Assembly (NCBI GenBank): GCA_965232815.1
Contig: OZ247427.1
Coordinates: 3,609,602 to 3,673,601, forward strand
DNA from: Dehalococcoidia bacterium
GTDB lineage: Bacteria > Chloroflexota > Dehalococcoidia > Lucifugimonadales > UBA3495
Length of the DNA: 64,000 nt
Direction of reading: 5' to 3'
Both the position numbers and the translations under genes were made by a program. The notes beneath the pieces were generated by a model. The model worked only from the letters and a program-made list of their open reading frames with translations, did not search any database and had not been told where the DNA came from. This document shows positions 2,944-48,453 of the stretch, piece after piece (position 1 is the first letter of the stretch; every line of letters starts with the position of its first letter).

Positions 2944-3552
2944 CTAACCCGCCAATTCCCGCAACGCAGCGACCGTATCATCACGAAAACGCCGCCATGA
3001 CTCCAGCTGTTCTAACCTTCCGCCCACGGGGAGATTTTCCAGGAGAGTCCGCCGCAGGGTCGAAAATGACTTCCTGATCCTTTCTCGCCGCCGACCGGTC
3101 GTCTCGCTGGCTGTAATGAAAGCAGCCTCCAATATCGCCTTCGGATCAGCCCTTTGTTCGCATTCATGCGGCAGTGGCAAGCTCAGTGGTATTGTCCCGT
3201 TGGGCTTGCGCACGGCGTCCCTGATCGCGTGATCATCCAATAATAACCATGCCTCTGTCATACGCACCGGAACGACCCCAACCCACCGACGGTGAAAAGA
3301 CGCATTTTGAATCGCGTCTTCTATCTCTTGATATCTTCTTTCGGAATCAGCCGACTCAGCATCCCGGTGTACAAACACTAGATCGACATTACCTTGACTC
3401 GCTACGCCGTTCCGGATTTTGTCAACCAAATACCGGCCTTGTGTCCAAAAATTGCCGTCAGGTTCACACGCTCCAATTGCGAAAAGCAGCCGACGGATAT
3501 GCGTTACCAACGCTCCATCGGAGGACCCATCACAAACCAGCAGGAATTCCAT
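2944..3552 (-). CDS. TOPRIM-like (DUF4276/OLD-nuclease-like) protein, partner of the upstream ATPase
   Basis: Acidic motifs FLLVCDGSSD, VFVHRDAES and MTEAWLLLDD occur in the order expected for a TOPRIM fold. The ATG at 3552 lies 2 nt after the ATPase stop; an alternative TTG at 3570 would overlap it by 16 nt. AT-richer than neighbouring genes. Assignment is by motif recognition only. Confidence 0.6.
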   Translation of the reverse strand: MEFLLVCDGSSDGALVTHIRRLLFAIGACEPDGNFWTQGRYLVDKIRNGVASQGNVDLVFVHRDAESADSERRYQEIEDAIQNASFHRRWVGVVPVRMTEAWLLLDDHAIRDAVRKPNGTIPLSLPLPHECEQRADPKAILEAAFITASETTGRRRERIRKSFSTLRRTLLENLPVGGRLEQLESWRRFRDDTVAALRELAG

Positions 3553-3554
3553 CC

Positions 3555-4985
3555 CTATATCGTTGCCCAAAGATCGAGAGGGAGTGCGATCTGCGCTTCC
3601 TCTGGGGGTAGCAAATAAGATTGCAACGACAACAGGTCTATCCCATCCCGCTCATTGCTACACCGCCATGATTTCCGGTATGGATGACACTTGAGCAAAT
3701 GCTCCGTGATTCCTGCACCCGCGGACGGGACCATACCATCTCTAGCAAGTACCAAATCTTCTTTTTCTTGCAACTGCACAAAGTAAGGCGAATGAGTGGC
3801 CACGACTACCTGTCGCATTGGATTTTCGCCATCCACCAGTTCCTCTGCATCAACCGCGAGGTCGTGCAATAAGCGGTTCATAGCCCCGATCTTGCCGGGA
3901 TGTATCCCGTTTTCCGGCTCTTCCATGCACAGGATCCCGCCCTCATCAACCGATTCAGACAACGCGGCCAGTGCCAAAAACCTCAGCGTCCCATCTGAAA
4001 TTGAGTTGGCCCGGAGTTTTATCCCGGACTGCTCCTCCACCTCCAACGCCAGGAGTTGTCTTACGTCGTCTCTAACTATGCTCACCATTTTGACAGGCAC
4101 GAGTTCCGACAAAATGATGGAAACCATCTGAAAGATTACGTCAGGCTGATCTCCCTTTTCAGCGGCAAGGTTCGACAAATGCTGAAGGGTTGCAGGAATA
4201 TGTGCCCCGTTGGCGGCTATTCCCGGCGCTTGAGTGTAGCGGTCAGGTCGGCGCATGGCCGCCGGATCAAGTGCCAATACTCGCCAGCTTTGCATTTCGC
4301 GCCGTGCCGCCAGGATGGTAGGCGTAGCGGAAGTATTCTCTGTTCCGATAATGGTCCTGGTAGCGCCCTGGGCTGGAGATGGCCTGGGGTGCCCCCGGGA
4401 GCCGCCGTCCTGGTGAACATCGATGGCCGCTTGTTCGGTGTCTGGGTCTATTCGTGTGGAAATAAACCCGCTCCGCGCGTGCCGCTTGTTGAACACCACA
4501 CTGTCGCGAAATTTGCTCTTGCTGTGAGGGAACTTCAAATGTCTGGCCGCCCGGCCGGTTGTGATGGGTCGCAACTCTTCGCGCTCCAACGCCAACCCAC
4601 CGAGCAACCCCCCGGTGGGCGACGGCGGTTCGTAACGGAATGCAACTTCGTAACGCAGGAAGGATGATGATGGATTTGCTTGCCGACCAAAATCATCTCT
4701 GACCGTGTCCCGAACAATCATCTCGGCCGCGAACGACATGCGATTGCTCTGGTCGCCGCCGAAGAAGAGCAAATCCTTTATATCCCCGGTCTCCTCACCC
4801 GCATTGCGTATCTGTAGCGCCGCATCGTTGATGGTGTGATCGGTCAGCAACGATAGAAACCGAATCGCGTCAAAAATGTTGGACTTTCCCACCCCGTTTG
4901 GGCCCGCAATGCACGTGTACGGCCCGAAGTCCAGAGAAAAATTCACCAGGTTTTTGAATCCGTTTACTTCGAGCCGCGTAAGCAT
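3555..4985 (-). CDS. ABC/SMC-type (AAA_15/AAA_21-like) ATPase
   Basis: Walker A CIAGPNGVGKSN, signature-like ISDGTLRFLAL, Walker B ILCMEEPENGIHP, H-loop VVVATHSP. ATG at 4985 is preceded by GGAGG-cgatc. The GTG at 4997 used in the ORF track lies inside the RBS. Confidence 0.8.
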   Translation of the reverse strand: MLTRLEVNGFKNLVNFSLDFGPYTCIAGPNGVGKSNIFDAIRFLSLLTDHTINDAALQIRNAGEETGDIKDLLFFGGDQSNRMSFAAEMIVRDTVRDDFGRQANPSSSFLRYEVAFRYEPPSPTGGLLGGLALEREELRPITTGRAARHLKFPHSKSKFRDSVVFNKRHARSGFISTRIDPDTEQAAIDVHQDGGSRGHPRPSPAQGATRTIIGTENTSATPTILAARREMQSWRVLALDPAAMRRPDRYTQAPGIAANGAHIPATLQHLSNLAAEKGDQPDVIFQMVSIILSELVPVKMVSIVRDDVRQLLALEVEEQSGIKLRANSISDGTLRFLALAALSESVDEGGILCMEEPENGIHPGKIGAMNRLLHDLAVDAEELVDGENPMRQVVVATHSPYFVQLQEKEDLVLARDGMVPSAGAGITEHLLKCHPYRKSWRCSNERDGIDLLSLQSYLLPPEEAQIALPLDLWATI

Positions 4986-5037
4986 GATCGCCTCCACAAA
5001 AGGCGGGAGCCGGGTCTTTACGCAATTCTAGCACGCG

Positions 5038-6792
5038 CTATTCCGACGCCCTCCGCAACCGCTCCATCTCGCACGCGAACCACAGCGCCATGCTGCCCGT
5101 CCGGTCGTCGTGTCCGCTCAGCGCCGCCCGGTCCAGGTACGCCCGCATGTCCGGCATCACCCCCGTGCTGATACACCCGTCCACTACGCCGCCTTCGTCA
5201 TCAATCCGCTCGGACAACGCCCGCCAGCACGACTCAACGCCCGCCCGGTATCCGTCCTCATCGCCGTCCGGCAACCATCCCTCCCTCAACCCCCGCGCCA
5301 GCGAATACCCGACCATGCACGTAGAGGTCAGTTCGCCCCAAGCCCCGGGAACGTCCACCAACTCCCCGAACGTGCCCCACGGTTGCTGCCGCCTGAGCAG
5401 CGCGTCCAGATGCCTCCGGTGCCTCGCCAGCAGTTCCGACCACGCCGGGTGGTCCTGCGGTAAATAGGTCAACGCCTCCGCGTAACCCAGCGCCGCGAAC
5501 CCGTTGCCCCGGCTCCAGTGGAGCGGCGCGGAGCGGGCGTGCTTGAACAGCCCGCCGCCGTCCTGCACATCACCGCCTTCAATCAGGAACCTGGCCAGCA
5601 GGTCCGCGTATTTGCCGTCTCCCGATATCCGGAACGCACGGCCCAGCATCGCGCCGCACATGAACATGTCCTCCACGCGAAAATCGGGGTCGCACGGCGA
5701 TGGCGCTTCTCCCGGCCCGCGTGCGGCAAAACGGTCCGCCGCGTGGAAGAACAGCCGCCGGTACTGCTCGTCACCGGTGTAGTCCGACAGCCGCGCCGCC
5801 CACACCACGCCCGTCAATCCCGCGCCGCCCAGGTCGTCCAGATACGCGCTCGGCTCGGCCGCGATATGCGCGATCAGTTCCGCGATCTCCTTGGTCGGAT
5901 TCGCCCCGCCATCGTCCAGATCAGCCAGCCGCAGCCGCCCGCTGATGCCAACGCCCTGCGTGTAGTTCACCGGATCCAGCGCGTGCCCGTACCTGCCCGC
6001 CAGGATGCGCCCGATATCCAAGGGGGTCCTCGCTCTGCGCGCCTCCAGTGCCAACCGTCCCGGCGACGCTGGCACGTCCGCGTCCTTGCCGGTCAGCGCG
6101 TATAAATCTCGCAACGCGTCGGTGAGGCCGGTCCAATGAGTCGTCAGCCGCAACCCCGGTATCGCGCCCGGCATGCTCTCATGCGGCCGTCCCAGCGCCG
6201 CCACCAGCGAGTCATCATCCTCAATCGCAACCGCATTCATCGCGCTCGCGACGTTCCCGCTGGCCGCTGCTCCGTTGGCTTCCCACGTCGCTCCTTGGCT
6301 CTCGCTGTCAGAAAGCGCAATCTCTACCACCAGATCCGGAGCCTGGTAGCAGATCCAACGCCACAGGTACCGGAGTTCCGGCGCCGACTCATCGAAGTAA
6401 TAGCCCCCTTCGGGTGGGTAGCCGTTGGTCAGGTCCACCGCGTTCGCCGCCAGTTCCTCCCAGTCCCCGCCGGCCAGGGCGTCCGGATTCGTCGCCACGA
6501 TCGCGGACAGCGCGACGCCCGACGCTTGCGCCGCCGCCGTTCCGGTGAACCGCTCCAGCGCAACCAGGATCCTGGGCGTATCCGACGAGTCCCCGCGGAG
6601 TCCAGCCACCATCAGGATCGACGGCCTGTGTTGATTCTCGGCGAACGGCAGCGTCCGCGTATCTTGCAGCGCCATGATGGGCCGCAACTCGGGTGTCAGA
6701 CCAATGGAGGTCGATCGCCAGTACGCCGGCGAGCGTTTGCGCAGCAGGTTGATCAGGGCGGCATTGATGTCCGTGGGGTGCATCGTGGACAT
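5038..6792 (-). CDS. Glycoside hydrolase family 88/105-like protein with an N-terminal extra domain
   Basis: The C-terminal half carries HWSRGNGFAALGYAEAL and QQPWGTFGELVD...ELTSTCMVGYSLARG, matching the (alpha/alpha)6 GH88/GH105 signature WaRGNGW...Q..G.W...E.S. Start chosen at ATG 6792 (GGAG 5 nt upstream) rather than 6900. Confidence 0.65.
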   Translation of the reverse strand: MSTMHPTDINAALINLLRKRSPAYWRSTSIGLTPELRPIMALQDTRTLPFAENQHRPSILMVAGLRGDSSDTPRILVALERFTGTAAAQASGVALSAIVATNPDALAGGDWEELAANAVDLTNGYPPEGGYYFDESAPELRYLWRWICYQAPDLVVEIALSDSESQGATWEANGAAASGNVASAMNAVAIEDDDSLVAALGRPHESMPGAIPGLRLTTHWTGLTDALRDLYALTGKDADVPASPGRLALEARRARTPLDIGRILAGRYGHALDPVNYTQGVGISGRLRLADLDDGGANPTKEIAELIAHIAAEPSAYLDDLGGAGLTGVVWAARLSDYTGDEQYRRLFFHAADRFAARGPGEAPSPCDPDFRVEDMFMCGAMLGRAFRISGDGKYADLLARFLIEGGDVQDGGGLFKHARSAPLHWSRGNGFAALGYAEALTYLPQDHPAWSELLARHRRHLDALLRRQQPWGTFGELVDVPGAWGELTSTCMVGYSLARGLREGWLPDGDEDGYRAGVESCWRALSERIDDEGGVVDGCISTGVMPDMRAYLDRAALSGHDDRTGSMALWFACEMERLRRASE

Positions 6793-6950
6793 GAAAACTC
6801 CGGATGTCGGTCGAGTGGTTGAAATGAGATGCCAAAAAACGTCGCGTATTATAACCATTGCCAATCGCTGCTTGACCCGCGACCTTTTGACATAGCCCAA
6901 CGCCCGCTATACATTTCCACCCATTCCCATCCGCAACCGGAGTTGGCCGC

Positions 6951-8220: not shown

Positions 8221-8913
8221 ATGGTCACCGTCAAATCCGAGCCAACGGACACCGCAGAAACTCAGGAACTCCCGGAGCCAAATTGGTCCCTGGTAGGCGA
8301 ACTGCGGCTGAACCTCACCGCCCTCGGCGTCGACCACCTCGCCGATGATTTCGGCGAGCGCCTGTGCCAGCTGTCCAGCGACAACCCAGGTTGGCAATTC
8401 GAATATTCCGCCAGAGGAGAACTAATCGTAATGGCTCCACCCGGCTCCGAAAGCAGCCTTGACGAGACCGAAGTTACTGTAGCAGTGGCTGTATGGCGGC
8501 GTAGTGGCGGCGGCATGAGCTACGGACCTACCATCGGATTCCGCCTGCCCAGCCGCGCGGTTCGTATTCCCGATGCCGCTTGGATTACCCAGGAACGTTA
8601 CGACAACCTCACACCGTCTGAACGCCGTGGAACCATCAACGGTGCTCCGGATTTCGTGTTCGAAGTCCGATCACCCTCCGACCGCCTGCCGCCCTTCCTC
8701 GCCAAGATGCAGGAATGGATGGACGGAGGCGCGCGCTTGGGGTGGGGCATCGACCCACTCAATCGCCACGTCTACATCTACCGGACTGGGCAGACCGGGC
8801 CAGAACTCCTCGAAGACCCGGAAACGTTGTCCGGCGAGGACACCCTGCCCCAGTTCACCTTCGAGGTGCGTCGCCTGATCTTCGACCGCCACACCGAGGA
8901 GTCGGAATCATGA
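8221..8913 (+). CDS. Uma2 family (DUF820) putative endonuclease
   Basis: 230 aa. ELIVMAPPG...DAAWI...PDFVFEVRSPSD...KMQEWMDGGARLGWGIDP is the PD-(D/E)xK-like Uma2 pattern. GGAGG RBS upstream. Confidence 0.8.
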   Translation: MVTVKSEPTDTAETQELPEPNWSLVGELRLNLTALGVDHLADDFGERLCQLSSDNPGWQFEYSARGELIVMAPPGSESSLDETEVTVAVAVWRRSGGGMSYGPTIGFRLPSRAVRIPDAAWITQERYDNLTPSERRGTINGAPDFVFEVRSPSDRLPPFLAKMQEWMDGGARLGWGIDPLNRHVYIYRTGQTGPELLEDPETLSGEDTLPQFTFEVRRLIFDRHTEESES

Positions 8914-10166
8914 CCGAATCTGGACCCACCCCCAACGCCCTCACCGGCATCCGCGTCGTCGAGTTCGGCCCTTACGTCGCCCTACCGCTCACCGGCCGCA
9001 TCCTCGGCTCCCTCGGCGCGGAGGTCATCAAGGTCGAGACCAACAAGGTCCTCGATGAAATGGCCTTCATCCCCGCATGGTCTCGCGGCGCCGGCCAGCC
9101 TGAGTACCAGCGCGGCAAGCGCCGCATCACCCTCGACGTACGCACCGACGCTGGCCGCGACCTGATCCTCGAAATGGTCCGCATCAGCGACGTGTTCATG
9201 ACCAACTTCCGCCGCAACGTCCTCGATCGTTGGGGCATCGACTTCCCCGCAATCCGCCGCCAGCGTCCCGACTCCATCATCATGTGGCAGACCGGCCTCG
9301 GCGGCCACGGCCCCTACTACACCTACAAGTCCTTCGGCATCCTCGTACAGCACCTCTCCGGCGTGTCCCTCATGACCGGCCTCCCCGGCGACCCGCCTGG
9401 TGTGGTCAACACCTCCTACTCCGACTACCACACCGGCGTTTTCCAACCCGCCGGCATCATCGCCGCTCTCATGCGCCGCAACCTCACCGGCAAGACCGCC
9501 ACCCTAGAATCGTCCATCTTCAAGTCCGGCGTCGCCACCTGCGGCCCTGCCCTGCTCGACTACCAGATCAACGACCGCCCACCCGAACGCCGAGGCAACC
9601 GCGACGCGTGGGCCGCTCCCCACGGCGTCTACCCTTGCGCTCCCGACCCCGTCTCAGGTGATGCCGACCGCTTCATCGCCATCTCCGTCGCCGACGACCA
9701 CCAATGGGCCAAGTTCCGCCAGGCCATGGGCGACCCTGCGTGGGCATCCTCGCCCGAATACGCGACCCGCATCGGACGCCAGCGCAACCAGGACTCCCTC
9801 GACGCCGCCATCGCCGGATGGACCGCCACCCAGGATTCCGCCGCGCTCATGGACTCCTTGCAACAGGCCGGGGTCCCGGCCGGCATGGTTTCCCAGGGTG
9901 CCGACCTCAACGCCAGCGCCCACCTGAAATCCCGCGATTTCTACCAGGACACCCAGTATTGGGAGGCGGAGCGCGGCGTGAAGGCCACCGAGTGGGTTGA
10001 GGGTGACAGCGTGTCTTGGTCAATCCCCGCCAAAATGTCCGGCACCCCAATCGCGTTCGGCCAATACAGCAACATCGGCGAGGACAACGCCTACGTTTTC
10101 GGCGAACTCCTCGGCCTCACCACCACCGAAATCTCCGAACTGGAGGAAGCGGGCGTAATCTACTGA
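8910..10166 (+). CDS. Family III CoA-transferase (CaiB/BaiF)
   Basis: MTESGPTPNALTGIRVVEFGPYVALPLTGRILGSLGAEVIKVE. The ATG at 8910 overlaps the Uma2 stop (ATGA). The 8715 start in the ORF track is an out-of-context extension. Confidence 0.9.
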   Translation: MTESGPTPNALTGIRVVEFGPYVALPLTGRILGSLGAEVIKVETNKVLDEMAFIPAWSRGAGQPEYQRGKRRITLDVRTDAGRDLILEMVRISDVFMTNFRRNVLDRWGIDFPAIRRQRPDSIIMWQTGLGGHGPYYTYKSFGILVQHLSGVSLMTGLPGDPPGVVNTSYSDYHTGVFQPAGIIAALMRRNLTGKTATLESSIFKSGVATCGPALLDYQINDRPPERRGNRDAWAAPHGVYPCAPDPVSGDADRFIAISVADDHQWAKFRQAMGDPAWASSPEYATRIGRQRNQDSLDAAIAGWTATQDSAALMDSLQQAGVPAGMVSQGADLNASAHLKSRDFYQDTQYWEAERGVKATEWVEGDSVSWSIPAKMSGTPIAFGQYSNIGEDNAYVFGELLGLTTTEISELEEAGVIY

Positions 10167-10186
10167 CCGCACCCGAAAATTGAATC

Positions 10187-10206
10187 GGGCCGCCCGATGG
10201 CGGCCC
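10187..10206. terminator. Perfect 8-bp GC hairpin between convergent genes (bidirectional terminator candidate)
   Basis: gggccgcc-cgat-ggcggccc, followed by gttattcg. It sits between the CoA-transferase stop (10166) and the end of the minus-strand small ORF (10246). Confidence 0.6.
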
Positions 10207-10245
10207 GTTATTCGTAACTCGCAATTCCACGCAGCGCCGGGCAGC

Positions 10246-10404
10246 TTATTCAGATCCGCTTTCGCCGCTCTTCGGTTTTGCGCTGGACGGCAACTTGCCC
10301 CCCGGCGGCTTCCCCTCAGGCCATGCAACGTACGTACCTTTACGCGGCGCGGTACCCTTGATCACGCGCTTCCTCACGTATTTGGCTTTATTGGATGGCA
10401 TCAT
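10246..10404 (-). CDS. Small basic protein (52 aa), hypothetical
   Basis: Read by hand because it is below the ORF-track length cutoff: MMPSNKAKYVRKRVIKGTAPRKGTYVAWPEGKPPGGKLPSSAKPKSGESGSE. It starts 8 nt after the stop of the upstream 228-aa gene, with a GGGAG RBS between them. Confidence 0.35.
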   Translation of the reverse strand: MMPSNKAKYVRKRVIKGTAPRKGTYVAWPEGKPPGGKLPSSAKPKSGESGSE

Positions 10405-10412
10405 GTCTCCCG

Positions 10413-11099
10413 TCAACCGTTAGGATCGCCGTTCTTCAACAATATATCGTGGACAGTGGTCGCTGACCAGCCTTGCGCCGACGTACCGTGTTCCAGATAT
10501 TCCCTGTTGAAGAAGTAAGAGTACACCAAGGCCGTTGTAACGTCCCGAGAAACTATGAACTCGCACGGTTCGTGATGATACGCTCCCGGTTCGATCACGA
10601 TCTCATTCGGCTCCAATTTCCGTGCGACATCATCGATGGTGGGCCATTCGATGTAGGCGCTGCCATCCTCGCGGAACGCCTCCACATAGTAGTGTTCTAC
10701 GTCATCGTCGCTCAGCGGTTGGACCTGGTGGATCTGAAATAGACACTCCCGCACCTCCACCCTGACCTTCGAGCTGTTGTGCAGCGTCGCCGTCACCGCG
10801 ATGTGCGCGTACCCACTGCCCACCACGCGGCTGCTAACCGTTTGCGTAACCGTCAAATGCGGCTCAAAATCCCGAAACAGTTGCAGCTTGCGGTGCGCAA
10901 ATATCCCGCCTGCCACCAGAAGGAAAGCGGCCGCAAAAACCTGCATCATCCCCACCGCATCGCTCACCCGACCCATTTCGGGTAACCAGAGGCTCACCGC
11001 TGCAACTATCCCCACCAACCCGACAAGGATAACCACAACGATGAGGGCATCAGCCGCCAGCCGTATGCGGGATCCGAACAGTGCCTTTAACCGGTTCAC
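10413..11099 (-). CDS. Hypothetical membrane protein (two N-terminal TM helices plus a ~140-aa soluble domain)
   Basis: 228 aa. TM1 ALIVVVILVGLVGIVAAVSLWL and TM2 MMQVFAAAFLLVAGGIFAH, then a non-repetitive beta-rich-looking domain. No family recognised. The region is visibly AT-richer than its surroundings. Confidence 0.6.
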   Translation of the reverse strand: MNRLKALFGSRIRLAADALIVVVILVGLVGIVAAVSLWLPEMGRVSDAVGMMQVFAAAFLLVAGGIFAHRKLQLFRDFEPHLTVTQTVSSRVVGSGYAHIAVTATLHNSSKVRVEVRECLFQIHQVQPLSDDDVEHYYVEAFREDGSAYIEWPTIDDVARKLEPNEIVIEPGAYHHEPCEFIVSRDVTTALVYSYFFNREYLEHGTSAQGWSATTVHDILLKNGDPNG

Positions 11100-11123
11100 C
11101 CGATAAGTCTAGGCGGATCTCCT

Positions 11124-11416
11124 CCGGACTGTCCCACGCCCAGCGTCACCAATAAAGCGCCGACGCCACCCATAGCGGCGCCGGCGCAATTTACCCAGGC
11201 TCGAAACGTGGTCAGTTCTCGAAGTCGGTGATCACGCTCCGTCGCACGCTGCCGGCCTTCATGTCGGCACCGGACTGTCCCACGCCCAGCGTCACCAAAA
11301 AAAGCGCCGACGCCACCCATAGCGGCGCCGGCGCAAATTACCCAGACTCGAAACGTGATCAGTTCTCGAAGTCGGTGATCACGCTCCGTCGCACGCTGCC
11401 CGCCTTCATGTCCGCA
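11124..11416. repeat. Tandem duplication, 2 x ~146 bp (~96% identical)
   Basis: Copy 1 is 11124-11269 and copy 2 is 11270-11416. They differ at 6 positions including a 1-nt indel. Each copy contains the last 58 nt of the ADH coding sequence (..SVRRSVITDFEN*) plus its downstream hairpin gcgccgacgcc..ggcgccggcgc. Confidence 0.9.
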
Positions 11417-12450
11417 AACGCCCGATTGATCTCGGACAACGGCACTTCCTGCGTAACCAGCTCGTCCAGCTTCAACCGTCCCTGCTTGTAGAACTCGATA
11501 TACCGCGGCATATCTGTCCGGAACCGGTTGGATCCCATCGTGCAGCCCTGTATCGCACGTCCTCGCCGCAGGAAGTTCCCGGCGTCCAGCTCAATTTTCA
11601 CGCCCTCAGGAACCATCCCGATGATGGTCGCCATCCCGCCGGGCCGCAGCATGTTGTAGCAGTCCTCGGCGGTCTGCTTCAGCCCGATGGCCTCGAAGGA
11701 GTAATCCACGCCGCCGCCGGTCAGCTCCACGATTCGCTCGGCCACGTTGCCTGACGTAGCATCGATCACGTCCGTCGCCCCGAACTCCCGCGCCAGCGCG
11801 AACTTGTCCTCCGTCGTGTCCACCGCGATGATCCGCAACGCTCCGGCGAGAGCAGCCGCCTGCACGCAGTGGATGCCGATGCCGCCGCAGCCAACCACCG
11901 CCACCGTGCTCCCCGGCTCGACCCGCGCCGTGTTCAGCACCGCGCCCAGGCCCGTCGTCGCGCCGCACCCGATCAGCGCCAACTGCGGGAACGGGATGTC
12001 GTCCTCCACCTTCACCAGCGCGTTCTCGTGCACCAGCATCTCGGCGGCATAGGACCCCAACTGCGCAAATTGCGTGATGGCCTCGCCATCCTTCCGCAGT
12101 CGGGGCGGCTCGTTGCGACCGCGCGTCACCGCCCTCCGGTCGCACAGGTACGGCTGTCCCCGCGTGCAGAATTCGCAGACCCCGCAGAACACCGACAGGC
12201 ACATGATCACCGAGTCGCCGGGCCGCACGTAACTAACCTGCTCCCCGACCGCCTCAACAGTGCCCGCTGCCTCATGGCCCAGGATGCACGGCATCGGCGT
12301 CGTGTAAAGGCCTTCCACAAAATGCAGGTCGCTGTGGCACACGCCCGACGCTCCCGTGCGTACCAACACCTCGCGCGGCGCCGGCGCATCCACCTGCACG
12401 TCCTCCACCACCACCGGTTGGTTCACCTCGCGCAAAACTGCTGCTTTCAT
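11359..12450 (-). CDS. Zinc-dependent alcohol dehydrogenase (MDR family)
   Basis: MKAAVLREVNQPVVVEDVQVDAPAPREVLVRTGASGVCHSDLHFVEG carries the GxCHSD zinc-binding motif, and VVGCGGIGIHCVQ is the NAD-binding motif. Length 363 aa. Confidence 0.9.
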   Translation of the reverse strand: MKAAVLREVNQPVVVEDVQVDAPAPREVLVRTGASGVCHSDLHFVEGLYTTPMPCILGHEAAGTVEAVGEQVSYVRPGDSVIMCLSVFCGVCEFCTRGQPYLCDRRAVTRGRNEPPRLRKDGEAITQFAQLGSYAAEMLVHENALVKVEDDIPFPQLALIGCGATTGLGAVLNTARVEPGSTVAVVGCGGIGIHCVQAAALAGALRIIAVDTTEDKFALAREFGATDVIDATSGNVAERIVELTGGGVDYSFEAIGLKQTAEDCYNMLRPGGMATIIGMVPEGVKIELDAGNFLRRGRAIQGCTMGSNRFRTDMPRYIEFYKQGRLKLDELVTQEVPLSEINRAFADMKAGSVRRSVITDFEN

Positions 12451-12696
12451 CGATCAATCCCTCCGAACGATTGCTTCTTGAGTGCGGCGATGTTAACCGC
12501 GCCGCCGGCGAGCGTCAACAAACATGGGTCACCCATCGCCACTCACGGTTGGGATAACAGCCCCGCATCAAAACCGTCATATCGCGAACGCCTAAACCGA
12601 GCACATCCCAACCCTGCTCAGTTTCGCCGGCGCCCGCGAGCTTCCTAGATTGCCGTTCCCGAATCACGCCGCATCATCCCGCTCCGCAGGCAAACG

Positions 12697-12722
12697 AAAA
12701 CGGCCCCCCTCAGGGAGCCGTT
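12697..12722 (-). terminator. Hairpin + U-rich tract downstream of tRNA-Asp
   Basis: On the minus strand: aacggctccctgaggggggccgtt followed by ttcgttt. The aacggc/gccgtt stem has a GC-rich interior. Confidence 0.5.
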
Positions 12723-12745
12723 GCAAGAATCGCGTAATTTTTTAA

Positions 12746-12821
12746 TGGCGACCCGGATCGGATTCGAACCGACGATCTCTGCCTTGACAGGGCAGTATGT
12801 TAACCACTACACCACCGGGCC
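12746..12821 (-). tRNA. tRNA-Asp (GTC)
   Basis: Hand-folded cloverleaf: acceptor GGCCCGG/CCGGGTC, anticodon stem CTGCC/GGCAG, loop CTGTCAA, T-arm GTCGG-TTCGAAT-CCGAT, encoded CCA end. 76 nt. Confidence 0.9.
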
Positions 12822-13089
12822 ACATCATCGCGCAGCGTAACTGCGTAACGATAATTTTAGGCAGCAACCCGTTCGATTGTCAAACCAACCGCGTTGCGTC
12901 GGACGCCCAGCATTGGTCACTTTCCCAGCGGCCCGGACATCTTGGTTACGGAATCCGAATCACCGTAACGTGGCTATCCTCAATCGCGAACGGCCTGCGG
13001 CCCCTGGCATCCCGGTTCCATCCATTCAGATCAGCGGACAGAACCGAGCCAGCGATTAATCGGCTATGAATCGACGCTATCAACCCTGC

Positions 13090-14445
13090 TCATGACAACC
13101 GGCCGGTCAGGACTTCGCTGCGGCTGTTCCAAGACCGGTCCACCAGGTGCTCCATCGCATCGTTCGGCAAATGATGGTGCTCCATCACCCAGGCCATCTC
13201 GTCGGCCAGCGTGGTCCCGAATATCCCCGGATCGTCCGTCGCGACGACGAACGGAGCATCGCTGGCAATGAACTCTTTCACCGGATGGTGTTCGGGCCGC
13301 TCGATCCCCGCAATCCTCCGGTTGGATGTCGGGCAAACCTCGATCACAGACCCCAGCGCCCGGATGCAATCAATCGCGTATCGTTGCCGCTGCCTCACCT
13401 CTGCCAGCCTGGCATCGTCGTACTCGATCGTGAGCCTTTGGTCCCGCGGACACTCCCCGATCGTCCTCAACTCTTCCGCAACTCCAACGGCATCAACGCC
13501 GACTCCAAACTTCCCCAGCCCCTCTCTGTGCCGCAGGTCATAGTTCAGTTGGTCAATGCGCTCGCTTACGCTTTCTGACCGTCTGTGATCCCCGAACCGT
13601 TTCGGATCAACCCCCAGCGAGATGGCATGACCCAGGCGATGCGCCCCCATCTCCGCAGCCTCATGCACCCAGCGCACCGCGCTTTCCAGCGACTTGTCCT
13701 CGAAACTTTCACCCACGTGATACAGGATCGCCAACGCCCGCTCGGGAAGTCGGCGGTTGAAATCCTGCACCGCTTGAAAAAGCTCAAGTTGTTCCTTGGG
13801 AGGGTGCCCCTCCTCGAAGTAACAGAAATCCACCCCTGTCAAAAGTTGCCCCAGCGGCCCTGATGCCACCTCCTGCGTAACCTCCCAGGCCGGCCACGGA
13901 TCGTCTCGCGGCAGGCTTATCGCCAACCGGGGCTGCATGTCGGCATCCTCGCACTCCGCCAACGAGCCCAGCATCGCCAGCACCAATTCCTTCGCCTGCG
14001 CACGCGTGTATTTCGACCCCAGCGTCATCCTCTGCTCGATGTATCCGACGTTCTCCCGGCGTTGCCTGGCAACGATTTGGCGTATGAACGTCCGTATCCC
14101 ATCGATGAGAGTGGGTAGCGAAACCTGCCCTCCCGAGTACCTGATCGAATCGACTCCATGGATCAGCATGTCATACTTGGCCTGAAATCGTTCGAAGCTC
14201 CCGCCGTCCCCGTCACCGAACACGAACAACCGCTCGAATTCCCGTTGTGCGCCCGGCGCCCCGCTGCGACACCGCCCTATGATCTCCTCTACACGAGGAT
14301 CCGTCCCGTACACCTGCAGATACTTACGGCGATAAGCGTCCCAGTCCACCTCCCGCCCTCGCAGAAACTTCAGGAAGTCCGCAGCCCCTATGCACCCGTA
14401 AAAATGCGTGTGCACGTCCGCCAGTTTTCGCCGATGCGCGTACAT
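13090..14445 (-). CDS. Adenosine/AMP deaminase-family amidohydrolase
   Basis: 451 aa with the metal ligand motifs DVHTHFYG, HVGES, HRLGHAISL, VCPTSN and ATDDPGIF, in the order found in the A_deaminase family. It is about 100 aa longer than typical Add enzymes. Confidence 0.8.
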   Translation of the reverse strand: MYAHRRKLADVHTHFYGCIGAADFLKFLRGREVDWDAYRRKYLQVYGTDPRVEEIIGRCRSGAPGAQREFERLFVFGDGDGGSFERFQAKYDMLIHGVDSIRYSGGQVSLPTLIDGIRTFIRQIVARQRRENVGYIEQRMTLGSKYTRAQAKELVLAMLGSLAECEDADMQPRLAISLPRDDPWPAWEVTQEVASGPLGQLLTGVDFCYFEEGHPPKEQLELFQAVQDFNRRLPERALAILYHVGESFEDKSLESAVRWVHEAAEMGAHRLGHAISLGVDPKRFGDHRRSESVSERIDQLNYDLRHREGLGKFGVGVDAVGVAEELRTIGECPRDQRLTIEYDDARLAEVRQRQRYAIDCIRALGSVIEVCPTSNRRIAGIERPEHHPVKEFIASDAPFVVATDDPGIFGTTLADEMAWVMEHHHLPNDAMEHLVDRSWNSRSEVLTGRLS

Positions 14446-48128: not shown

Positions 48129-48204
48129 TGGTGGGCCGTGTGGGGGTCGAACCCACGACACCCGGATTAAAAGTCCGGTGCTCTACCAACTGAGCTAACG
48201 GCCC
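48129..48204 (-). tRNA. tRNA-Lys (TTT)
   Basis: Hand-folded: acceptor GGGCCGT/ACGGCCC, D-arm GCTC-AGTTGGTA-GAGC, anticodon stem CCGGA/TCCGG with loop CTTTTAA, T-arm GTGGG-TTCGACC-CCCAC, encoded CCA. 76 nt. Confidence 0.9.
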
Positions 48205-48336: not shown

Positions 48337-48453
48337 TCTGGTGGTTCAAGCGGGGTGGTCCCACCCGTTCCCATCCCGAACACGGAAGTGAAACGCCCCA
48401 GCGCCCACGATACTGCTCTGGTGACGGAGTGGGAAAATAGGTCACCGCCGGGA
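48337..48453 (+). rRNA. rrf: 5S ribosomal RNA
   Basis: Contains GGTCCCACC..CCCGAAC..GAAGTGAAACGCC..AGCGCC..GAT..GGGAAAATAGG, collinear with bacterial 5S. Helix I pairs ctggtggt with accgccgg. End coordinates are good to a few nt. Confidence 0.9.

Follow-up and report, generated by a model that had tools for sequence, protein, structure and literature searches.

A probable HEC-01-type pair of an ABC ATPase and a small Toprim-like protein in the chromosome of a Dehalococcoidia bacterium

The A/B gene pair and its profile matches

A stretch of 64,000 nucleotides from a Dehalococcoidia bacterium (contig OZ247427.1, positions 3,609,602 to 3,673,601 of the forward strand; hereafter the window) contains two closely packed open reading frames (ORFs) on its minus strand, designated genes A and B. 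With high confidence these represent an intact chromosomal copy of a two-gene module of the HEC-01 type (Hma-embedded candidate 01, where Hma denotes helicase-methylase-ATPase). Gene A (3555-4985) codes from an ATG for a 476-residue, 52.3-kDa ABC ATPase of the OLD/AAA_21 type, and gene B (2944-3552), likewise from an ATG, for a 202-residue, 22.9-kDa Toprim-like protein of the DUF4276 branch. Both products match models of the PADLOC database. Protein A aligns to HEC-01A (PDLC04184) over residues 1-405 of 476 with an E-value of 1.4e-91, and protein B aligns to HEC-01B (PDLC04210) over residues 51-201 with an E-value of 1.2e-23, with ten further HEC-01B models matching more weakly. The HEC-01B alignment omits the N-terminal 50 residues of B, which contain its first acidic motif. 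HEC-01 has been carried in PADLOC (PADLOC-DB v2) as a candidate system since 2023-24; the pair thus is of an already catalogued type and adds no new system type. A preliminary description of this DNA had called it an uncharacterised subtype, which does not hold in view of these matches. Its broader proposal, a split pair of an ABC-type ATPase and a small Toprim-like protein resembling OLD and PARIS, agrees with both the profile and the fold searches.

Upstream of A, across a gap of 52 bp, lies a GH88-like gene (5038-6900), and downstream of B, across 15 bp, an MFS gene (1603-2928); both are on the minus strand, such that all four genes are co-directional. A Shine-Dalgarno motif GGAGG can be read on the minus strand at 4991-4995, 5 nt before the ATG of A (4985-4983), and this ATG is for that reason preferred over a second possible start at GTG 4997. 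At the A/B junction (3550-3557, minus strand) the stop codon of A is separated by a spacer of 2 nt from the start codon of B (TAG-GG-ATG), and the two genes are likely to be translationally coupled. An alternative start of B at TTG 3570 would yield 208 residues and a 16-nt overlap with A; since homologues begin with M-R/E-F-L-L-V-C, the ATG is taken as the start. The lengths, spacing, possible overlap and common direction given in the preliminary description agree with this layout, and the motifs which it quoted for both proteins are all present where it placed them. Promoter and terminator scans of the region gave matches at about chance level, and no Rfam family matches within the pair.

The pair is also, as had been noted, more AT-rich than its flanks. 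Its GC content is 0.5475 against a window mean of 0.6226 (z = -3.5, for 2042-bp segments across the 64 kb), an equally low value is found in just 0.16% of such segments, and no other 2-kb stretch of the window is lower. The deficit resides at third codon positions, where the GC content (GC3) is 0.61 in A and 0.54 in B, compared to 0.76-0.89 in the flanking and core genes, leaving out a Uma2-family gene described below.

The ATPase A and the putative active site of B

Protein A contains the motifs of an ABC ATPase in their proper order, and these are conserved in 48 homologues. They comprise the Walker A motif or P-loop GPNGVGKSN (residues 28-36, 4878-4904), the signature-like motif SDGTLRFLAL (residues 330-339, 3969-3998), the Walker B motif ILCMEEPENGIHP (residues 351-363, 3897-3935) and the H-loop VVVATHSP (residues 393-400, 3786-3809), all on the minus strand. 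Residues G28, N30, G31, G33, K34, S35 and N36 of Walker A are invariant among the homologues, as are E355 and E356 of Walker B, which reads EEPE (MEEPE) instead of the DEPE usual in AAA_21 ATPases. Protein A matches the Pfam families AAA_21 (3.9e-27) and AAA_15 (4.2e-17); the designation 'AbiEii toxin' was rejected, as it is merely Pfam's label for AAA_21. Weaker PADLOC matches than that to HEC-01A are found for AriA (5.4e-26), NsnB (5.4e-15), AbiLi (1.3e-13), Old (1.4e-13) and GajA (7.4e-12). The NCBIfam model MAD3 aligns to residues 1-417 (8.5e-40), with 137.2 bits against a cut-off of 420. Among PDB sequences the match of A is confined to the P-loop N-terminus of OLD, SMC and Rad50, and the N-terminus of A resembles the heads of SMC, RecF and Rad50.

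Beyond the reach of the HEC-01A model, A ends in a variable acidic tail (residues 406-476; 3558-3770, minus strand) with an isoelectric point (pI) of 4.9. The mean identity of this tail is 0.56, equal to that of B, whereas residues 1-60 of A reach 0.93. Within the syntenic group of loci described below, the identity of the tail tracks that of B with r = 0.78, better than any other segment of A (0.22-0.51). This covariation marks the tail as a candidate region for contact with B, but it could also mirror shared recombination tracts instead of physical contact.

A search of 1.8 billion representative proteins with a profile of B homologues identified 2074 clusters (at 50% identity). Of the best 150 of these clusters, nearly all are stand-alone proteins of 200-220 residues, and no fused ATPase-nuclease form occurs among the same 150; an exact-sequence look-up of the B protein found nothing on record. 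The AlphaFold2 model of B (pLDDT 94.1, pTM 0.90) consists of two parts. The N-terminal Toprim-like α/β domain (residues 1-105; 3238-3552, minus strand; pI 5.2) comprises four β-α units, with strands at residues 2-6, 32-36, 58-62 and 89-93 as assigned by DSSP on the model. It is followed by a basic helical C-terminal domain (residues 106-202; 2947-3237, minus strand; pI 9.75) with conserved DPK and GRRR motifs, which may provide a nucleic-acid-binding surface. A Foldseek search of the model against the PDB returned as its top two matches the C-terminal, Toprim-containing regions of OLD from Xanthomonas and Burkholderia (6njv and 6nk8), with a probability of 0.96-0.97. Sequence profiles of B built from 40 and from 120 sequences gave no meaningful match among PDB sequences, and a fold search of BFVD with B gave nothing significant. 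DUF4276 and Mad4 have been assigned to the Toprim superfamily (PMC12065111). Because 97 of 120 diverse B relatives match DUF4276 at E ≤ 0.01 (best 1.4e-9), membership of B in this family rests at the family level, with B in a divergent branch and no formal Pfam member itself.

The acidic residues of B are contained in the motifs LLVCDGSSD (residues 4-12), VFVHRDAES (residues 59-67) and MTEAWLLLDD (residues 98-107). D8 (3529-3531) lies after strand 1, where Toprim proteins have their glutamate, D64-A65-E66 (3355-3363) takes the place of the Toprim DxD after strand 3, and E100 (3253-3255), within a PVRMTEAW motif, follows strand 4; all are on the minus strand. D64 and E100 do not vary among 196 relatives, and D12 hardly does. 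Position 8 is Glu in 178 of them and Asp in 17, and position 66 is Asp in 160, Glu in 18 and Asn in 18. The family consensus reads CEG...HRDAD, and the window protein has D8 with D64-A-E66. The two deviations are coupled: D8 is accompanied by E66 in 16 of 17 cases, and E66 is present in just 2 of the 178 sequences with E8. In a neighbour-joining tree the D8/E66 state occurs in about eight separate clades, including distant actinobacterial ones, and this recurrent coupling argues that the E8D/D66E swap is no random drift. A swap between two carboxylates which compensates in length would be expected if both contact one metal site. The coupling, as indirect evidence from aligned sequences, suggests a selected and functional active site in B with a putative shared metal.

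Compared to the closest relative, at locus L081, A has a ratio of nonsynonymous to synonymous substitution rates (dN/dS) of 0.041 and B one of 0.13, which indicates that both genes are under purifying selection. These ratios bear on the view that the pair is a decaying remnant which no longer functions in this genome, as might be supposed from the many sister loci that are degraded. Both ORFs are full length, every invariant residue of the family is kept, and the Shine-Dalgarno motif and coupled junction are intact, which together with the low dN/dS render a remnant very improbable.

Distribution, history and loss of the pair

One genome per GTDB species was scanned with the B profile, which revealed at least 493 relatives, and 80 loci were retrieved. 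These cover more than ten phyla. Dehalococcoidia form the majority, and the other hosts include Pseudomonadales and other Gammaproteobacteria, Alphaproteobacteria, Spirochaetia, many Actinomycetota, Acidobacteriota, Armatimonadota, Myxococcota, Gemmatimonadota, Cyanobacteria, Binatia and Rhodothermales. Such a pair is labelled 'AAA family ATPase' and 'hypothetical protein' in RefSeq, and pairs of this type can be annotated as HEC-01 candidates. An A gene, or a remnant of one, lies directly upstream of B on the same strand in 80/80 loci. Since the loci were seeded with B, this figure is biased and shows just that B never lacks an upstream A gene or remnant; as an unbiased measure of pair conservation it was rejected, because A without B is found in a second sample. 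That sample was seeded with the MFS gene and covers the same synteny independently of B, at eight distinct loci. The conservation of the pair, which the preliminary description had proposed as a check, is therefore one-sided: B is accompanied by A throughout, whereas A occurs without B at two MFS-seeded loci (L165 and L169).

The gene order of the window, CoA-transferase, Uma2, CoA-transferase, GH88, A, B, MFS, SDR, recurs in 27 species genomes out of the 80 found by B seeding, each of them labelled Dehalococcoidia or Chloroflexi. It is also found in three loci retrieved via close B homologues, and the GH88-A-B-MFS arrangement recurs at 8/8 of the distinct MFS-seeded loci. No integrase, adjoining tRNA or notable flanking direct or inverted repeats were detected at the pair. 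The synteny across the clade and the lack of these hallmarks indicate an old resident locus, and a recent genomic-island insertion was rejected on the same grounds. The inserted island proposed in the preliminary description is thus upheld as a compositional anomaly with a history of its own, but not as an insertion event.

This separate history is evident at several levels. In 83/83 loci the GC content of the pair is below that of its flanks, by 7 points on average. In the comparison with loci L013, L021, L028 and L002 the flanking proteins are 79-95% identical, A 76-81% and B 52-55%; B identity is also put at 52-60%, against 76-95% for its neighbours. The uncorrected synonymous difference pS amounts to 0.2-0.55 in the GH88 and MFS genes, rises to 0.6-0.9, i.e. 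saturation, across A and B, and returns to the flank level at the first MFS codons. Most of the protein-level divergence falls in B and in the final 70 residues of A. In the comparison with L081, divergence is the same in the cassette as in its flanks. Since synonymous sites are saturated in the cassette and the flanks have diverged moderately, the history of the cassette is decoupled from that of its surroundings; this is most simply explained by the exchange, or the retention, at one conserved site of whole-cassette A-B alleles that diverged long ago.

The MFS-seeded sample also shows that the pair is frequently lost. It is intact at 3/8 of these loci (L164, L171 and L172) and lost or degraded at 5/8, mostly in the nuclease part. 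At L165 (4420-4500 in the coordinates of that locus, as for the loci below) just the last ~30 nt of B are left, and at L169 (4188-4423) B is replaced by repeats, a 55-bp unit in 3.4 copies and a 22-bp unit in 2. In both cases A is intact and divergent; these alleles (L165, 3002-4438; L169, 2736-4169) are ~58% identical to A of the window. An in-frame deletion at L166 (3022-4488) has created an A(1-446)-B(141-202) fusion from which the whole Toprim domain is gone, and at L170 (3453-4485) the deletion extends from about residue 240 of A to residue 98 of B. The Toprim domain has thus been removed at this one locus by three deletions that differ from each other, in L166, L170 and L165. L167 and L168 represent one locus in two assemblies, with A fragmented and B degraded. 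Remnants of the pair are present at all eight loci, i.e. there is no clean empty site among them. A metagenome scan with the MFS protein for an empty GH88|MFS site gave just distant MFS genes (≤55% identity) with no GH88 gene or pair nearby. Elsewhere, A and B are separated at L030 (6600-10000) by an IS110-family transposase with a DDE fragment, and at L039 (6937-8643) the 5' part of A is interrupted by a DDE_Tnp_1_4 transposase. With A disrupted by an insertion sequence (L039) or frameshifted (L036) much of B is left, where errors in the metagenome-assembled genomes (MAGs) are possible.

The module can thus be dispensed with and is frequently lost, most of all in its nuclease part, and a housekeeping role would not be expected of it. 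Deletion or degradation at five of eight loci in a single clade, and disruption by insertion sequences elsewhere, speak against a housekeeping ATPase-nuclease pair in DNA repair or RNA processing (SbcCD/RecF/RNase M5-like), which would resemble defence modules by chance. Such a pair would account for a chromosomal site that stays the same, in metabolic surroundings, at 27 B-seeded loci and at each of the 8 distinct MFS-seeded ones, for the lack of mobile-element hallmarks, for purifying selection on both genes and for the SMC-, RecF- and Rad50-like N-terminus of A. It fits poorly with the patchy occurrence across phyla, the aberrant GC3, the allele replacement indicated by synonymous saturation relative to the flanks, the divergence of B far beyond that of its neighbours, and the defence-candidate models as best profile matches. 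A housekeeping function is on these grounds considered quite unlikely.

The asymmetry between the two genes can be read in more than one way. The bias in loss fits a costly effector that needs its ATPase. A toxin-antitoxin-like addiction module, in which B would be a toxic nuclease and A its ATP-dependent restraint, and which would serve as a selfish or stress module with no dedicated anti-phage role, would likewise explain why B never occurs without an upstream A gene or remnant (80/80 B-seeded loci), why A persists alone at L165 and L169, why the deletions of L166 and L170 remove the Toprim domain and why the tight 2-nt coupling maintains co-expression. The lack of defence by HEC-01 in one screen and the weak association with defence genes also suit this explanation. 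The same asymmetry is, however, expected of abortive-infection systems such as PARIS, in which AriB is sequestered by AriA (PMC11464382). In addition, one HEC-01 representative reportedly protects its host and relatives are embedded in Hma and MADS defence loci. Plasmids, on which addiction modules are common, hardly ever carry the family, and much of B is left despite a broken A (L039 and L036), which would be unexpected if loss of the antitoxin were lethal, MAG errors aside. An addiction module is accordingly regarded as an unlikely explanation, if one to be kept in mind.

Outside the syntenic group, most of the 256 ORFs nearest to the pair at 53 non-syntenic loci are metabolic. A minority is of the defence type, comprising type I, type IIG and ISP restriction enzymes, AbiLi, HEC-02A/B, HEC-05, RmrA, a PLD-SNF2 helicase, ZacA (Zorya), DpdF (Dpd) and methyltransferases. 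In four Micromonospora loci an ORF of ~1140 residues lies directly upstream of A (L055, 5109-8552; L067, 5120-8542; L070, 5106-8552; L078, 5104-8535); it is probably the source of the Type ISP and IIG restriction-methyltransferase matches, the counts of which were pooled across loci. In L007, a Pseudomonadales MAG, the gene next downstream of B, on the opposite strand, encodes a 1056-residue PLD+SNF2 helicase (BrxH/PbeA/DrmD-like; 10631-13801).

The window is elsewhere an ordinary piece of chromosome, with genes for DnaE, a ClpB-like protein, ABC exporters, tRNAs and a 5S rRNA. The Pfam match of the GH88-like ORF (5038-6900) is confined to residues 457-615, and its N-terminal ~450 residues match no family. 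Its homologues are called at 582-587 residues and align from about residue 24-37 of the listed ORF, so that the true start probably lies downstream of the listed TTG at 6900. A Uma2-family gene (8221-8913, plus strand; PF05685, 1.1e-29), putatively restriction-endonuclease-like, is flanked by the two CoA-transferase genes; its GC3 of 0.70 is below that of its neighbours, and the same synteny is kept in relatives. A second patch of low GC content (0.55-0.58) at 10000-11000 contains a 228-residue ORF (10416-11099, minus strand), which has a hydrophobic stretch at its N-terminus and matches no Pfam family. The 5S rRNA gene (48337-48453, plus strand, 89 bits) adjoins a divergent tRNA-Lys(TTT) gene (48129-48204, minus strand). 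No 16S or 23S rRNA was detected within the 64 kb, and the 5S gene does not appear to belong to an rRNA operon.

Proposed role and comparison with known systems

On balance, the pair seems to constitute an ATPase-controlled Toprim nuclease which acts in defence or abortive infection; much less confidence attaches to any specific nucleic-acid target of B. In the mechanism proposed here, B would be a small Toprim nuclease, dependent on metal and belonging to the DUF4276 branch, and A would oligomerise and hold or restrain it, by analogy with PARIS, OLD and Gabija. The contact between the two would probably involve the fast-evolving acidic tail of A and the basic helical C-terminal half of B. A would sense an infection-associated cue and then license B to cut nucleic acid, which may be DNA, as for OLD and GajA, tRNA, as for AriB, or other RNA. 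Cleavage by B would stop the propagation of a phage or plasmid, possibly at the cost of the cell. We infer the A-B complex, the sensing step, the nuclease activity with its target and the defence phenotype in this organism from these analogies.

Several observations weigh against this assignment. The match of B to Pfam DUF4276 (PF14103; 6e-4, residues 55-154) scores 20.5 bits, below the gathering threshold of 30.2 bits, and the canonical Toprim Glu is an Asp in the window protein, with DxE in place of DxD. The Foldseek statistics of the OLD matches are modest, with E-values of 0.011-0.035 and TM-scores of 0.39-0.45, and nothing was found at E ≤ 1e-3. The AlphaFold2 model of A is poor (pLDDT 58), and its Foldseek matches, to PtuA, SMC and Rad50 heads, identify it no further than as an ABC ATPase head. 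The family is almost absent from phage records (1/50,697) and plasmid records (2/72,556, both large non-mobilizable replicons); a blastn search against plasmids gave no match. In the window clade the neighbours are metabolic genes, with no defence genes among them, and of the 256 ORFs mentioned above ~8% are defence-related, by rough pooled family counts without a background control. Finally, a test of HEC-01 in E. coli gave no defence against any phage tried (10.1101/2024.01.29.577857). The Toprim-type fold which the preliminary description had ascribed to the small protein is moderately supported, by the HEC-01B match and by the OLD Toprim regions at the top of the fold search, with a weak DUF4276 match and none to DUF4435; the enrichment in defence islands which it put forward as a check is weak.

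A more speculative proposal, which we put forward tentatively, is that in related Dehalococcoidia HEC-01 forms a long-lived immune locus at a fixed chromosomal site rather than a mobile island. Ancient A-B alleles would be exchanged or maintained there, with diversification in the nuclease and the ATPase tail, deletion of the nuclease when its cost exceeds its benefit, and E8D/D66E as a tuning of the metal site. If so, the clade would offer a natural allelic series for studying HEC-01 specificity and the restraint of the nuclease by its ATPase. The comparison of loci provides several handles: five conserved acidic positions in B, with a coupled E/D swap that points to a putative shared metal site; the A tail, where contact with the nuclease is likely; naturally occurring variants with the nuclease deleted or fused; and cassette turnover at a fixed locus in uncultured Dehalococcoidia. 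Combinations of an ABC ATPase with a Toprim protein, as in OLD, Gabija and PARIS, are a major theme of bacterial immunity, and for the DUF4276 branch (HEC-01 and Mad3/4) the phenotype data are contradictory.

HEC-01 was described by Payne et al. as an ABC ATPase with a TOPRIM partner inside Hma systems, for which a conserved metal site was predicted (10.1101/2024.01.29.577857). Both window proteins match its models and the genes have the same arrangement, with the ABC ATPase followed by the small TOPRIM/DUF4276 protein, adjacent and on one strand. Unlike HEC-01 as described, the window pair stands alone between GH88-like and MFS genes and not inside an Hma system, and its B has the catalytic residues D...DxE, not E...DxD. 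One HEC-01 representative, from a cold-seep metagenome study, reportedly gives E. coli B protection from one or more of T4, T5 and T7 (PMC12881386). The statement in the preliminary description that the pairing has no experimentally defined function therefore remains essentially true of the mechanism, but is out of date as to cataloguing.

The methylation-associated defence system (MADS) of Pseudomonas aeruginosa contains, in Mad3 and Mad4, a similar combination of an AAA_15/21 ABC ATPase and a DUF4276 Toprim protein. Deletion of mad3 or mad4 reduces defence (10.1101/2023.03.30.534895), and MADS3-4 is counted among the systems of an ABC ATPase with a TOPRIM protein in the PARIS paper (PMC11464382). 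Nevertheless, A scores far below the MAD3 cut-off and the flanking 10 kb contain no methylase gene and no Mad1, Mad2 or Mad5-8 genes; an assignment to MADS was rejected for these reasons. The class 1/2 OLD proteins and Gabija GajA share with the window pair the ATPase clade and the Toprim catalytic chemistry, and the best structural matches of B are OLD proteins. In contrast to the window, where a stop codon separates two genes, their domains are fused in one polypeptide, and Gabija requires the GajB helicase, whereas the window pair has no helicase partner; Gabija and class 1/2 OLD were consequently rejected. Small Toprim-superfamily effectors also accompany ABC ATPases in Menshen NsnC variants with a DUF4276 effector domain, in AbiL and in the RloB-type partners of type I restriction-modification systems (PMC12065111, PMC11464382). 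These differ in partner architecture, and the NsnB and AbiLi models match A weakly. OLD-type ABC ATPases with Toprim or other nucleases furthermore serve as back-up effector modules of BREX-related systems (PMC12839542).

PARIS (AriA/AriB; OLD class 4) resembles the window pair in its split ABC ATPase and Toprim nuclease, with the ATPase gene first. AriB, however, is a DUF4435 protein of ~35 kDa, compared to 22.9 kDa and DUF4276 for B, in agreement with the earlier remark that the nuclease partner is much smaller than AriB. Neither a DUF4435 match in Pfam nor an AriB match in PADLOC was found for B. Moreover, PARIS is often borne by phages or satellites, whereas the family of the window pair is nearly lacking from phage and plasmid records. 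The pair was therefore not assigned to PARIS, given the missing DUF4435 domain and an AriA match (5.4e-26) weaker than that to HEC-01A (1.4e-91). As a working model PARIS is nonetheless plausible: as in AriA and AriB, the ATPase may restrain its nuclease and then release it.

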